DNA from: Treponemataceae bacterium
GTDB taxonomy: Bacteria; Spirochaetota; Spirochaetia; Treponematales; Rectinemataceae
Assembly (NCBI GenBank): GCA_963677895.2
Contig: CAXXGJ010000038.1
Location: 224,001-288,000, forward strand
Direction of reading: 5' to 3'
Length of the DNA stretch: 64,000 nt
Part shown: in pieces, positions 45,001 to 51,000 of the stretch
Position numbering within the stretch: position 1 is the first letter of the stretch
How the letters are laid out: every line of letters starts with the position of its first letter
Program-made: the position numbers

Positions 45001-48000
45001 GTCCCCGCGCGTCACCGCGCGCACGAGAAGGCCGTTTCGATACTGGATTTCCAGGCTTGCCCCATCCATCTTGTACTGCACGATATACTTTTCGAACTTC
45101 ATCTTTCCGGCCCAGGCTTCGAAGGACTCGGGGTCGGTAGCCTTGGCCTGGCTTCCCATTGGAATGGTATGTCTGACTTTTGGCCAGCCATCGGCCTTGT
45201 CCTCGCCGATCCTGCGCAAAAGCGCGTTGGCCGGATCCAGGTCTTCCAGTTCGGTCCAGAGCGCGTCGAATTCTTCGTCGCTTATCGTCGGCTCGGCGTT
45301 ATAGTAGAGCCGCTGATGCGTCACGATAAGCTTTTCCAGTTCGGCGACGCGCTCCGTTCTCGTAAGTTCTGCCATGGCGGAATGATAGTATGGCCATTAA
45401 GTTCTTGTCAAAGGTTACGTCTGTCTATAGCTTCGCATTGCAAAATCGGCTGTTCCATCCTACAATGTACGCCTGTAAAGAATGCTACTCAAAGGCAGGC
45501 CATGAATTTTTTTGCTATCCAGGTGATGACCGGCAGGGAAGATGACTTCATAGAGCTTTTCTCGAAGTCCCGACCCGATCAACCGCTTTACAACATCAAA
45601 AAAAAGCTCAAATCCAGACGAAGAGGAAAGGTTGTTTTTCTCATGAACTGTCTTTTTCCGGGATATGTCTTTTTTCAATATCCCGAGGAAAAGCCTTCCG
45701 CCGAACTCATAAGGATTTTCAGGCGCACGAGACATTTCGCGCGCGTACTGCCGGCCACCGACGGCATCAAGCCCTTGAGCGACCGGGATTCGGAGATCAT
45801 ACGCCACCTTCTCTCCTTCGGCAGGGAGATAGGCTCCTCGCTCGTATCTTTCGATGAAAACAACCGCATAAAGGTGATCCAGGGACCGATGATGGGGCTG
45901 GAAGGCCGTATCATCAAGGTGGACAAGAGAAAACGAAGAGCCAAGATCAAGTTCGAGATGACCGATTCGCCCATAACGTTCGACCTAGGCTTTGAAATTC
46001 TGGAAGCGGTCAAGGATACGCCCAAGGATATCTCCAGGGCCGAGGCTGAGGATACGGCTATGGAGGCGGGCCATTGACGGAAAAGAACGCTTCCGAGGCA
46101 TTGCCCCTTCTCAGTTCCATGCAATTCCCGGGCATGCTGTACGCTTCCACGATTCGTTCCGCCGCGGTAAGGGCGAAAAATTTCAAGATTACCCGGCCTA
46201 AGCTTCCCTCCGGGTATCGCTGCATTGTCGCCTCGGATATCGCGGAGGAAAACATTCCTTTGATTTTCGGCGACGACTTCTTCCTCTTCGCCGAAAAGGC
46301 CATTTCCTATAAGGGTGAGGCTCTCGGATTGATCACGGGGCCGGATCCTGCTATTTGCGACGAACTCGCTGGATCCGTAGCCGTCGAATACGAAGAGGAA
46401 GAACCCCAGCTGGAATGGGAAAGCTTCTCTTCCTCGCAGATCGACTACAAATACGCGATCGACTACGGGGATGTAGACCTCGCTTTTGAAAAAAGCCAGC
46501 ATATAGAGCGCGCGGTCTACAGAAACGGGATTTTCGACCACCATTACAGCGAACCCATGGGAGCCATCGCCAACTGGGAATACGACAAGATGGCCATCTA
46601 CTGCGCCTCCCAATGGCCCTCGGATGTGAGAAGGTCCGTGGCCGCCATCATGCGGGTGCCGGAAGCGGACATCGTCGTAAGACCTACCGATTTGGGCAGA
46701 TCGCTCGACGGGCGCCTATGGTTCCCCTCTATCGTAGCCTGCCAGGCAGCCATAGCGGCAAAAGTCTGCAAGAAGCCAGTGAAGCTGCTCTATACGCGAA
46801 AAGAAGATTTCCTTCGCACCCCCAAACAGGCCCGGAGCGCCGTCACCATTAAATCGGCCACCAACGAACAAGGCAGACTCCAGGCGCTCGACATCAAGAT
46901 CATCATCAATATCGGCATCTATAATCCCCTGGCACGGGAACTTGTCCACCAGGCGGCCGCCGCTATCACGGGCATCTACGCCTGCCCTTCGATACGGCTC
47001 GAGGCCTATGCCATCAAGAGCAACATCATTCCTCTGGGCGCCATGGGGAGCATCGGCGCGACGCATGCCTTCTTCTCCATCGAATCGCATCTGAATCATC
47101 TCGCGAAAACATTGGGCAAGACTCCCGCCGAAATCAAGATGCTGAATATGCTCGCTAAAGGTTCATCCAACTTCGGGAGCAAACCTCTCGACTATGAGAT
47201 TCCCTTCGCGAAAATCCACAAGAAGCTTGAAAAAATTTCTGATTACCGACGAAAGTACGCCAGCTACGAACTCGTCAAAAAAAGGGATCCGGGATGCCGG
47301 GAAGGCATCGTCCGCGGCATCGCTCTCACCGTGGGCTATCAAACAGGACAGACTTTTTCCAATCAACCCTTGATGAATGCCTATTCTGTCGAGACTACCC
47401 TCGACAGAGACCTGAATCTCATCATCAACACTCAAGCATCCATCGGCTCGGAAAGCCTCAAGGCGATGTGGAAGACGACAGCCTCCGCCCTCCTCTCGAT
47501 TCCGCCCGAGACCATACATTTTCCTCCCCCCGATACGGACAAGACGAATCCCTGCGGTCCTTTGACCTTGTCGCGCGGCGCATCAACGGTAAATAAGCTG
47601 ATTGAAAGAACCTGCAAGGCAATCCAGAAAAAGCGTTTCAGGGAAAGCCTGCCCATCGTCGCGAAGGTACAGAACCGCTCACCTAAAAACTCCGGTCTCG
47701 ACAAGAGTCCGGCGCAGGGCAACATTTTTCTGGATTCGGCTTCCTGGTGCGGCACGGCTGTTGAAATCGAGATCGACACGATCAGCGGCGAGCCAAAGCC
47801 TCTCGCGGTCTGGATGGTCGTCGACGCCGGCAAGATTGTCTCCAAGGAGAAGGCTCTTTCCTCTCTCCGTTCTTCAATAATAAGCGCCCTCAACCTATGC
47901 ACCGGCGCCGACTTCAATCCCGAAGGCATCGAGAGCGAGGAATATCTTCGCGATCGGAACCTGAGTCTCCTGGACCTTCCCGCCATCGGCATAGAATTCA

Positions 48001-51000
48001 TTGATTCTGAAAAAACAAGCGTGGCTCGCGGTTTGGGTGAACTGCCTTTCATCACCGTACCGGCCGCTTTTTACAGCGCCCTGACCCAGGCGCTCGGCGT
48101 AGAGCCTCGCCAGCTGCCCCTGCAGGGAAGCGAAATTCTCAAGCTCCTGGAGACCACATGATCATAGACATGAATGTGAACGGCGAGACGAAACACCTCC
48201 AGGCGCGAAGCGGCGATCGACTCGTCGATGTCCTTCGCGACGAGCTCTCCCTATCCAGCCTCCTCCCCGATTGCCTTTCGGGCAAATGCGGCCGCTGTTT
48301 CATATTTATGGACGGACGCCTCGTCCTTTCCTGCCTCGTCCCCGCCTTCAAGGCGAAAGGATCGACCATACAGAGCTATGAGGCGTTCAAGGAAATGCCT
48401 GACGTCAAGGAGATAATCCTGGCCATGGAAAAGGCCGAGGCACTTCCCTGCGCTTTCTGCAGGACGGGGAAGATCATGGCCATTCTCGACCTGCTAGGTC
48501 GCAGCCCCCTTCCCGAAGAGAAAGAAATACTGAAACAGCTGGACATGGTGGCCTGCCCGTGCACGGATCCGGTCTCGCTCGTAAAAGCGGTCGGCATCGC
48601 CGCGGAAATGCGCAATAAAAGGAAATTCAACCGTGCGGATAAGTGAACCATACTACCCGACCTCTACGGCCGAGATTCTCGCGCTCCTTCGCTCCAATCC
48701 CGAGATCCAGATTCTGGCCGGCGGGACTGAAATTGTCGGATCGCAGATGACCCGAGCCCTGGAATTTCCCGCCCAGGTAGCGTCCATAGCCAAGGTTCAG
48801 GAACTAAGAAAAACCATCCGTACGGAACAATTTATCGAACTAGGTTGCTGCACGACACTCACCGGCCTTCTGTCGCTTACCCCAGGCACGCTCCCCGACC
48901 CGCTCCCGGAAATCATAGATTCCATCGCCAATCATGCCATCCGCAATATAGCCACGATTGGGGGAAACCTCTGCTGCCGTTTCCGTTTCATGGATCTATG
49001 GCCTTATTTGGCATGCATGGACGCTCAAGTTGAACTAAAGACTCCTTCGGGAACCCGATGGGCCAGCGTCTCGCATTTGTGCGGCGAGGATGGGAAGCCG
49101 AATTTCCCGCGGACGGCGCTGCTCTCCAGAGTGAGAATCCCTCTTTATTCGTATAACTTCATATTTTACCGCAAGCTTGGCCCAGGGCTATTTCCCGGTC
49201 CGGAAACGGCGTCATTCGTCTGTATGGCCAACATCGAGCGAGGGAAAATAGAGGATTTCCGACTGGCCTTCGCCGGCGTGAAGGCATTCCGGCTAAAGGA
49301 CAGGGAAATGGCCATCGCGGGAAAAAAGACTTCTTCGGCATCCAAGGAAATACAGGCTATCATAGATGACTACATGAACGCCTTTGAAAGCCAGGACTGG
49401 TTCGACCGCCGCCTCTTCCTGTCGCTGCTCGAGGAAGCTTTTGAAAGGCTGTTCTCATGAACGGTAAAACTTCCGGAAAACTCTTTCTCCTCCCTGCACC
49501 CCTGCAACCCTACGAAGCGGAAAGCTGGGATCCCGCCATGCTCGCGCATTCGCTGCCCGCCGAAGCCCTGCGTCTTCTCGGCTCGCTGGATTTTTTCATC
49601 GTGGAATCGGAACGCACCGCGCTTCGGCTTCTTTCGAGACTGAAGAATAGGGAGTCGATGGAAAAGCTTTCCATGAAAATCCTGGACGAACACAGCAGGG
49701 AGTCAGATATTCCCGGCCTCCTCGCGGAAGTGCTCGACGGCCGGGACTGCGGATTCTTCACCGAGGCGGGAATGCCCTGCATAGCCGATCCGGGGGCGGC
49801 CCTCGTTTCCTTCGCCCACTCCAAGGGGATTCCCGTCCTGCCCATCTCCGGTCCTTCCTCCATTATTCTCGCGCTCACCGCCTCGGGGATAGACGCGCAG
49901 CGTTTTGCTTTCCTGGGCTACCTCCCGCAGGAAAAGATCGCGCGGCGCTCGGCGGTTCAGCGGCTGCTCAAAGACCAGAAGAGCGATGGGATGACGAGGA
50001 TTTTCATCGAGACACCTTATAGGAACGACGCGCTGCTGGCCGATCTTGCCAGCCTTGTTCCGGACGATCTGTGGCTATGTGTAGCTTCAGGTCTATGCGG
50101 TTCGGAGGAAAGCATACTGAGCAGACCCGGCGTCCAATGGCGGGCCGCTCCCCTTCCGAAAATAGGCAAGATCCCCGCCGTCTTCCTTTTCGGGCAAAGG
50201 GCGGGCCTCAAGCCCAAAAACACTCGCTGAACGAAAGCGAGTCCATCAGGCAAGCGAAGCGAGGCGTTCGCGTATGAATTCGCTCTTTTCCCGAAGCCCG
50301 ATGGCTTTTGTCTGGAGAATGATGGCATTGGGTTTTGCGGGATCGAGCTTCACGCGGCCGTTCGATTCGCGCATGAGGCGCAAAAGCCTTTCGACCGAGA
50401 TCTTCGATACCTTCGAAAACTCCACGATCACCCTTCCCCCGCGCTCCTTCAAGGTCGAGACGGAGAGTTTCCGGCAGAGAATCCTTATCTCAGCCAGCGA
50501 AAGCAGGGATTGAAGCTCTTCGGGCATCGGGCCGAAGCGACTCTCGAGTTCTTCCTGCAAGGCGTCCAGCTCGCCCTGTTTGTATATCGAAGCGATCTTC
50601 TTGTAGATTTCCATCTTGATCATCGGCATGGAAATATAGGTATCGGGGATATAGCCGGTATACTCCAGCTCGAGGTATGGCTCTTCCTCTTCCTGGGGCA
50701 CGCCGGAGAGAGCGTTTATGGCGTCATCGAGCAGTTTCAGGTACATGTCGAATCCCACGGCGAAGATATCTCCCGATTGCTCGCGTCCCAGGAGGTTCCC
50801 CGCTCCTCTCACTTCCAGGTCTTTCATGGCGATCTTGAATCCCGATCCCAGTTCGGTGAAGTCCGAAATGATCTGCAGGCGCTTCATGGCGATTTCGCTC
50901 AAAGCCCGTTTGTCGGGATAGAGAAGATAGGCGAAGGCCTGCCGGTCCGAGCGGCCCACCCTGCCCCTGAGCTGGTAGAGCTGGGAGATGCCGTAAAAAT

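Follow-up and report, generated by a model that had tools for sequence, protein, structure and literature searches.

What does a xanthine dehydrogenase-like complex do once its molybdopterin site is gone? Three adjacent genes in a Treponemataceae genome raise this question. They lie within the 64,000-nucleotide stretch analysed here (the window; contig CAXXGJ010000038.1, positions 224,001 to 288,000), on the + strand at 46074..49460, and encode a large (L), a small (S) and a medium (M) subunit, the L/S and S/M frames overlapping. Domain matches of the window trimer are MoCoBD_1/2, Fer2_2 and FAD_binding_5. The genes and their neighbours are the following (frequencies refer to 63 loci examined in wide context).

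43405..45375, - strand: ligA, upstream neighbour, also in 24 of 63 loci, Borrelia-type loci included
45382..45466, no strand: divergent sigma70-like promoter matches (to the consensus only) in the gap between ligA and the operon
45502..46077, + strand: NusG paralog (LoaP-like), operon head; start at 45502 probable, ORF listed from 45460; stop overlaps the start of L
46074..48161, + strand: L, 695 aa, XDH molybdopterin-domain fold with the cofactor site lost
48158..48646, + strand: S, 162 aa, with the two sets of [2Fe-2S] cysteines complete in this copy (C39/44/47/59 and C98/101/133/135); P97 replaces the pterin-binding Gln
48633..49460, + strand: M, 275 aa, in this copy with the FAD motifs AGGT and TIGGN
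49457..50230, + strand: RsmI-like methyltransferase overlapping the stop of M, a local and not a class-wide neighbour
50246..53635, - strand: mfd, downstream in convergent orientation; a neighbour at 30 of 63 loci

The NusG paralog scores 117.5 bits against NF033641, under the cut-off of 125, and folding of the leader RNA (45470-45560) was no better than that of shuffled sequences (z 0.04).

A preliminary description had read these genes as a molybdenum hydroxylase trimer with the Moco motifs lost from L, and reading frames, domains and fold agree with it. The model of the window L (pLDDT 87) has a TM of 0.90 to bovine xanthine oxidase and to R. capsulatus XdhB, the latter a resemblance already proposed. 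With the XO family (bovine XOR 1fiq/1fo4, R. capsulatus XdhAB 1jro, nicotinate dehydrogenase 3hrd and 4-hydroxybenzoyl-CoA reductase 1rm6) the trimer shares the fold (TM 0.86-0.90), the three-subunit layout, the hammerhead plus two MoCoBD domains in L and, in most of its members, the FeS and FAD motifs. It differs in lacking all the molybdopterin and catalytic residues tested, in having FeS and FAD ligands that are dispensable in several lineages and in its new Trp and loop motifs. The equivalents of Gly799, Glu802, Arg912, Gln1040 and Gln1194 occur in 0 of 100 aligned orthologs and in 26 of 26 intact kin. In the window, the positions concerned read:

46611..46616, + strand: Q180-W181 at the bovine Q767/N768 position; the Trp is clade-specific (96/100) and by alignment falls at the substrate channel
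46695..46721, + strand: GGGFGGKE replaced by G208-R-S-L-D-G-R-L-W216; none of 100 orthologs has the Gly799 or the Glu802 equivalent
47043..47057, + strand: FRGFG replaced by M324-G-S-I-G; none of 100 orthologs has the Arg912 equivalent
47448..47456, + strand: pterin-binding GQG replaced by S459-E-S; none of 100 orthologs has the Gln1040 equivalent
47634..47654, + strand: R521-F-R-x-x-L-P527 loop, clade-specific (R 87, L 91 and P 97 of 100) and not conserved in intact kin
48036..48047, + strand: GELP at the catalytic-base (E1261) position, from the GELPF of intact kin; Glu in only 48/100

By these residues, the molybdopterin site of the large subunit is lost. The GGxFGGK molybdenum loop is found by pattern in 25 of 26 intact kin, in none of the 100 orthologs and in none of the best 150 representatives, and FRGFG with its pterin-stacking Arg divides the two groups completely (26/26 versus 0/100). 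The pterin-binding Gln is missing from both of its contexts in L (GQG 0/100, QxEG 0/100) and from QCGxC in the FeS subunit (0/64). Scores also stay far under every NCBIfam cut-off (147 versus 784 bits). Three paralogs in the same genome keep GGGFG, as had been described, and a fourth reads GGQFG.

The idea that the site had been rebuilt is not supported, because the replacement loop varies: LDG, MDG or LDS, previously given as 28 of 29, occurs in 31 of 61 orthologs from the order and 33 of 100 overall. Nor is the C-terminal Glu of GELP mostly kept, as had been thought, although it is present in the window. What is newly conserved in L is a bulky Trp in the pocket together with new loop motifs, and W181, W216, E289 and R293 appear to lie along the former substrate channel. 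The Arg880 equivalent is kept in 59 of 100 orthologs, so that a ligand pocket may persist. In M, E134 (63/63) and R168 are specific to the degenerate clade, while K192, R258 and N115, residues on the NAD side in intact kin, hardly occur in it and are lost in the window.

The host genomes were also searched for Moco genes. MoeA_N was found in none of the five genomes tested, in line with the earlier report for near-complete treponemes, MoaC in none of 44 genomes of family f2, MoCF_biosynth in none of 37 Borrelia-type genomes (family f5, all with the FAD-type gene) and XdhC in none of four small genomes (G361, G102, G159 and G145). Many other carriers do have Moco synthesis, with MoaC in 65 of 161 genomes of the order. 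In the window genome (G000), intact hydroxylase genes occur with neither a MoaC nor a MoCF_biosynth match, so scavenging may exist in the group. With the Gln missing from the FeS subunit and MoCF_biosynth from the Borrelia-type genomes, molybdenum independence of the trimer is strongly supported, and more broadly than was first claimed.

How old and how widespread is the locus? Matches were found in 159 of 161 genomes of the order, the window genome included, not all of them proven orthologs (61 were verified by alignment). The description as an order-wide core locus needs a wider boundary: the range extends across class Spirochaetia and includes Borrelia bb_0554-0556. Clusters in the ESM Atlas belonged to the same family only, mostly from Spirochaetota. 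The usual class-wide order is NusG paralog, sugar dehydratase, aminotransferase, L, S, M; the aminotransferase lies directly upstream of the trimer at 46 of 63 loci and the dehydratase plus aminotransferase at 42, with overlapping frames, and the adjacent pair is absent at 17. The degenerate trimers form one clade (SH-aLRT 100) separate from intact kin, and three genomes (G540, G449 and G590) encode one trimer of each kind. The sister clade is the intact ~710-aa L-S-M hydroxylase of spirochaete anaerobic purine clusters (f14, f20, f28 and the paralogs of those three genomes), with the same gene order and shared SGP and GELPF. It keeps all cofactor motifs and adjoins YgfK-like, amidohydrolase, carbamate kinase, XdhC and MocA-like genes, whereas the degenerate clade sits in a block with ligA/SPOR, LoaP, sugar-enzyme genes and mfd. 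The trimer has diverged faster than the enzymes beside it (32-42% versus 57-68% identity), with long branches in its tree; its frames are full-length in the 128 genomes examined and it is kept in genomes of roughly 1 Mb. The locus is ancient across the class. The trimer was found in 0 of 10 genomes of f58, f63 and f83 (gene order checked only in G409, G386, G453 and G406), and the f88 matches were judged paralogs from score and length, not by alignment. A single-protein search missed the Borrelia-type and f87 copies, later recovered by profiles and gene order, so that not finding the trimer in these four families is no proof of absence. A flagellar role was rejected: the trimer is kept where flagellin is absent (f65 0/14, f59 0/4, f70 0/4, f74 0/1), and flagellin is present in all ten genomes of f58, f63 and f83.

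The remaining cofactors had been said to stay, and this holds for the window and for most genomes. The FeS-II cysteine pattern is present in 95 of 128 genomes (95/101 outside f5 and f87), and FeS-I and the FAD motifs are kept in most genomes outside these two families. It fails in the very 1.1-Mb genome cited before (G102), where all four FeS-II cysteines are gone, and in several other lineages: FeS-II is also absent from G159, G577, G404, G451, 23/23 f5 and 4/4 f87; FeS-I from G577, G404, G485 and f87, as read by eye since the pattern count under-counts (2/26 false misses in intact controls); and both FAD motifs (GGT and TxGGN) from 23/23 f5, 4/4 f87 and G451. On the tree these losses need 7, 4 and 3 changes for FeS-II, FeS-I and FAD motifs, respectively, and a single origin of FeS-II loss is rejected (p-AU 2e-43). 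In the four f87 genomes every cofactor ligand is lost and the trimer is still under purifying selection, with dN/dS of 0.13-0.32. Among close pairs in general it is 0.06-0.33. FeS-flavoprotein is a fair description of most members. It cannot stand for the function conserved at the core, since all three genes remained under purifying selection through repeated loss of each FeS cluster and of the FAD motifs.

The Borrelia burgdorferi genes bb_0554-0556 are orthologs by the tests applied here. Four of four tested primers from PMC9993122 match locus L108, which encodes proteins of 622, 155 and 289 aa. Their profile match to the degenerate clade is 97-99%; the hhalign contrast with intact kin (97% versus 6%) is inflated by unequal profile depth, and trees were used for that reason. 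In these the locus is nested in the degenerate clade, and grouping with intact kin is rejected (p-AU 0.011). It shares with the window the L-S-M order and has ligA two genes upstream, but lacks adjacent LoaP-like or sugar genes and is much more eroded, without Moco motifs, FeS-II cysteines, GGT or TIGGN, only the CxxC/CxC set of FeS-I being left. The BB0554-type model gives a TM of about 0.7, a value that depends on the alignment made here. A complex prediction for the Borrelia-type trimer scored 0.32 against 0.22 for the control, too little to weigh on either side. PMC9993122 called these genes 'xdhACB', a putative XDH; allopurinol had the effect of the deletion, and uric acid rescued the mutant; its authors took this as XDH activity, uric acid itself not being measurable and the missing motifs and Moco pathway not being discussed. 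In T. pallidum, PMC4403809 gives TPASS_0079 and TPASS_0081 as predicted Mo-binding and FAD-binding XDH subunits, and their neighbours fit locus L035 of G102. Since neither the Moco motifs nor any of the four FeS-II cysteines occur at L035, that annotation is unsupported.

Could the trimer still be a true XDH using scavenged Moco, as proposed for Borrelia? The complete fold, the allopurinol and uric acid results and the situation in the window genome speak for it, but we give this almost no credence: the pterin contacts tested are gone from two subunits, in Borrelia FeS-II and both FAD motifs have gone too, the Moco synthesis and XdhC domains searched for are missing as described, and PMC9993122 reports no direct activity. 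Slow decay of a vestige held in place by a conserved operon would fit the long branches, the step-wise loss of ligands and the clean absence from f58, f63 and f83 (0/10); it is highly improbable against full-length frames, dN/dS well below 1, retention in genomes near 1 Mb, clade-specific near-invariant residues and the strong deletion phenotypes in Borrelia (PMC9993122).

More can be said for a molybdenum-free FeS-flavoprotein oxidoreductase, the reading of the preliminary description, in which FAD and two [2Fe-2S] clusters would exchange electrons with a ligand in the remodelled pocket of L and the eroded copies would be secondary or residual. Eight cysteines and GGT/TxGG persist in most members despite about 30% identity, and the conserved W181, W216, E289 and R293 appear to follow the channel. 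We nevertheless consider it unlikely, though a serious competitor, since the electron path is interrupted at seven or more points on the tree, some in close relatives of intact carriers (G102 versus G320, G577 versus G506), the NAD-side residues are nearly gone, and ligand-free copies retain all three genes under purifying selection. An amino-sugar pathway could provide another redox role, the trimer acting as a dedicated partner, e.g. electron donor to a DegT-family enzyme. In 3,6-dideoxyhexose synthesis E3 serves E1 in this way, and E1 has His at the Schiff-base Lys position. The overlapping dehydratase and aminotransferase genes suggest such a link, but the aminotransferase keeps the Lys (SFYATK or SFYVTK in 14/14 aligned), the pair and the trimer occur apart (17 of 63 loci; pair alone in G409 and G386) and in the window genome (92.8% complete) neither enzyme has an ortholog (closest matches 30-39% identical), which makes this improbable.

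We favour, at a probability of about 0.5, an ancient spirochaete pseudoenzyme that lost Moco once, early in Spirochaetia. It would have persisted as a complex of three proteins, with a selected function that needs neither catalysis at the molybdenum site nor an intact electron wire. Fold kept, catalytic residues lost and purifying selection are the marks of a pseudoenzyme, and the trimer probably works as a non-catalytic protein complex. The ancestor would have been an XDH-type L-S-M trimer, a relative of the intact hydroxylases found in purine clusters. L, S and M may still assemble, with W181, W216, W466 and RFRxxLP of L and E134, R168 and LPL of M stabilising the empty pocket and forming a docking surface, and the remaining FeS and FAD could be structural or tune redox properties. 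Most genomes outside f5 and f87 keep FeS-II, FeS-I and FAD motifs, so there selection holds the cofactors as in a redox protein. The eroded lineages could, as a counterpoint to the pseudoenzyme reading, have switched job. As a guess, the complex might support envelope maintenance or the repair of damage by peroxide, either as a scaffold or as a regulator; PMC5333916 groups the trimer genes with a proposed membrane-damage response. The envelope link comes from that paper's hypothesis and from neighbours separable from the trimer in both directions.

In the literature searched there is no published description of this degenerate trimer, nor of any multi-subunit pseudoenzyme in the molybdenum hydroxylase family. 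These results correct the name 'xanthine dehydrogenase' as used for the trimer in treponemes and further spirochaetes. The published Borrelia assignment is in serious doubt: a locus needed for survival in tick and mouse lacks the molybdopterin site, FeS-II and the FAD motifs, and it is very unlikely that this infection-critical protein is the enzyme it was named for. With the sites missing and Moco-synthesis domains undetectable in these genomes, its role needs reconsidering and can be tested directly. Lineages that have lost cofactors to different degrees offer a ready series to ask which surfaces carry the conserved job, possibly envelope or peroxide-damage homeostasis. Put most boldly, and tentatively, a molybdoenzyme machine of 1,100 residues may have turned near the root of Spirochaetia into a wholly cofactor-independent structural or signalling complex, core to most spirochaetes including the agents of syphilis and Lyme disease, with a natural series from members with FAD and both clusters down to no ligand at all, which would explain the peroxide and infection phenotype of Borrelia without xanthine chemistry.

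The preliminary description proposed a xanthine-dehydrogenase-like (XDH-like) trimer with molybdopterin, [2Fe-2S] and FAD domains, and three overlapping genes in the window bear this out. They follow a NusG paralog.

45460-46077: LoaP-like NusG paralog at the operon head, scoring just below the LoaP cut-off
46074-48161, plus strand: large subunit gene L (695 aa), overlapping S; matches the XDH-family molybdopterin domain
48158-48646, plus strand: small subunit gene S (162 aa), overlapping L and M; matches the XDH-family [2Fe-2S] domain
48633-49460, plus strand: medium subunit gene M (275 aa), overlapping S; matches the XDH-family FAD domain

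Despite these domain matches, every NCBIfam cut-off lies far above the scores of the three proteins. The predicted structure of L (pLDDT 87) reaches a TM of 0.90 when superimposed on either bovine XO or XdhB of R. capsulatus. Close homologs carry the name Rectinemataceae. No structured leader of the NusG-paralog operon was seen in the window. A short ORF at 36378-36752, adjoining an RsfS-like gene, has a long tail rich in Asp and Glu.

The loss of the Moco-binding motifs described for L was confirmed. We aligned 100 degenerate proteins (61 from the order Treponematales, 39 from other families of the class) with 26 intact relatives, leaving out four duplicate loci and handling f5 (the Borrelia-type family), f87, G159 and G451 apart. 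Residues were numbered after the bovine enzyme from an alignment with it (the E1261 position from a further one), in which Gly799, Glu802, Arg912, Gln1040, Gln1194, Gly1197 and E1261 have cofactor or catalytic roles. The equivalents of the first six were found in 0/100 degenerate proteins versus 26/26 intact ones, and both Mo/pterin loop motifs were missing from all of the 150 best cluster representatives. A second subunit, which the preliminary description did not consider in this respect, bears the same sign: the pterin-binding Gln of the QCGxC motif in S was lost in 64/64. Small glycines of the pterin cavity are replaced by bulky residues, which suggests that the pocket is filled. The idea of a rebuilt site is not supported, its LDG/MDG/LDS loop being present in just 31/61 order orthologs; the GELP Glu, described as mostly kept, remains in only 48/100 and was inherited from the intact kin. 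Newly conserved in L are W181 (96/100), W216 (73), W466 (84), E289 (78) and an RFRxxLP loop, and in M E134, R168 and LPL, the last missing from the window's own M. Retention without Moco genes also stood, with MoeA_N in 0/5 genomes tested and MoaC in 0/44 f2 genomes, every one an L carrier.

The genome containing the window and its congener G333 (97% complete) gave no MoaC or MoCF_biosynth match, despite intact Mo-hydroxylase genes (L002-L005) and XdhC in the former, indicating either cofactor scavenging or an assembly gap.

The description of the trimer as order-wide was right (L matched in 159/161 order genomes) as far as it went; the range is class-wide: degenerate trimers were confirmed by sequence checks in 128 genomes of 32 families. 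An M profile search matched 244/261 class genomes, a count that includes paralog-only matches. The trimer was found in 0/10 genomes of f58, f63 and f83. The degenerate trimers form a single clade (SH-aLRT 100) separate from intact ones, which sit in anaerobic purine clusters. Both kinds are found side by side in G540, G449 and G590, and the degenerate trimer is therefore a gene family of its own and not the decay of a sole copy. Families f14, f20 and f28 (loci L039, L040, L041, L093) have full anaerobic purine-degradation-type clusters with at least two intact hydroxylases.

The recurring gene order is ligA, a SPOR protein gene and an unnamed 160-aa gene, then a divergent NusG paralog, a Polysacc_synt_2 dehydratase, a DegT aminotransferase, L, S and M, with mfd as convergent neighbour at the far end. 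Among 63 wide loci, NusG paralog, mfd and ligA were found in 29, 30 and 24; all three are retained in the window's genome. The unnamed gene, ahead of the SPOR gene and divergent from the NusG paralog in many class members, has no Pfam match at these loci:

L042, 2472-2945: unnamed ~160-aa gene
L044, 12851-13342: unnamed ~160-aa gene
L107, 11701-12192: unnamed ~160-aa gene

The soluble PglF/CapD-type dehydratase and DegT aminotransferase (4264-7123 in L035, the locus of the 1.1-Mb genome G102, and orthologs) are highly conserved across the class (57-68% between distant genomes), and in those non-flagellated families that were examined they are not next to the trimer. A flagellar role of the trimer was excluded by comparing flagellin and trimer distributions.

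The statement that FeS cysteines and FAD motif stay is true of most genomes outside f5 and f87 only. FeS-II cysteines are missing in G102, G159, G577, G404, G451, f5 and f87 (G449 is ambiguous), FeS-I cysteines in G577, G404, G485 and f87, and both FAD motifs in f5, f87 and G451. On an L-only tree with many weak forks these losses need 7, 4 and 3 changes, and a single origin of FeS-II loss was rejected. In four f87 genomes (G432, G472, G454, G504) the arrangement aminotransferase-L-S-M persists with zero cofactor ligands. The profile matches there are weak (E 6e-19 to 3e-4 for L), and the assignment leans on gene order and size.

The Borrelia-type locus L108 contains 4/4 tested primers of PMC9993122 and encodes proteins of the sizes published there, and we thus equate it with bb_0554-0556 (B. 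burgdorferi 'xdhACB'). Profiles of its three proteins hit the degenerate clade with 97-99% probability; the locus nests there on a very long branch, its precise position uncertain, and grouping with intact kin was rejected (p-AU 0.011). M is present in 37/37 f5 genomes and MoCF_biosynth in 0/37; all FeS-II cysteines are missing from S, and GGT and TIGGN from M (23/23). One CxxC/CxC set is kept by S in 23/23 genomes (L108, 8811-9278), possibly a zinc site; very little iron is reported in Borrelia (PMC9993122). In that paper, deletion caused peroxide sensitivity and abolished mouse colonisation and transposon mutants failed in ticks, with normal culture growth and motility; uric acid rescued and allopurinol imitated the deletion, uric-acid production was not measurable, and the accessible text leaves the missing motifs and Moco genes undiscussed.

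A function common to all members, if there is one, cannot need Mo, an FeS cluster or FAD, and for this reason we favour (probability about 0.52) a pseudoenzyme complex that would bind a putative partner or ligand without catalysis, FeS clusters and FAD, where present, being structural or redox-tuning accessories. The allopurinol result of PMC9993122 is left unexplained by it. The main rival, a tentative one, is an FeS-flavoprotein that needs no Mo and some copies of which were eroded secondarily: outside f5 and f87 the FeS-II pattern is kept in 95/101 genomes and FAD motifs in most, which counts against a purely non-redox reading.

We consider it unlikely that the trimer is a dedicated partner of the sugar pathway. 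In favour of this, the aminotransferase is immediately upstream in 46/63 wide loci and both sugar genes are present in 42/63; against it, G409 and G386 have the pair without trimer, and no ortholog of the pair was found in the window's genome. That the trimer is a vestige seems improbable, with dN/dS of 0.13-0.32 in f87 (within genera) and 0.06-0.33 in f5, f2 and f4 pairs, and a true XDH is hardly credible; in Borrelia such chemistry is very unlikely.

A literature search, covering neither subscription journals nor proteomics supplements, which may bear on novelty, gave only XDH-type annotations, in PMC4403809, PMC10566445, PMC6516651, PMC11411949 and the Borrelia paper and preprint. Overall, the trimer is genuine and spans the class; it has a known fold in a catalytically degenerate form, and by their defining motifs it does not belong to the molybdenum hydroxylases. 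Its neighbour genes and PMC5333916, where bb0554-0556 are grouped with a postulated response to membrane damage, allow the guess that it may have a role in the envelope or in peroxide damage.
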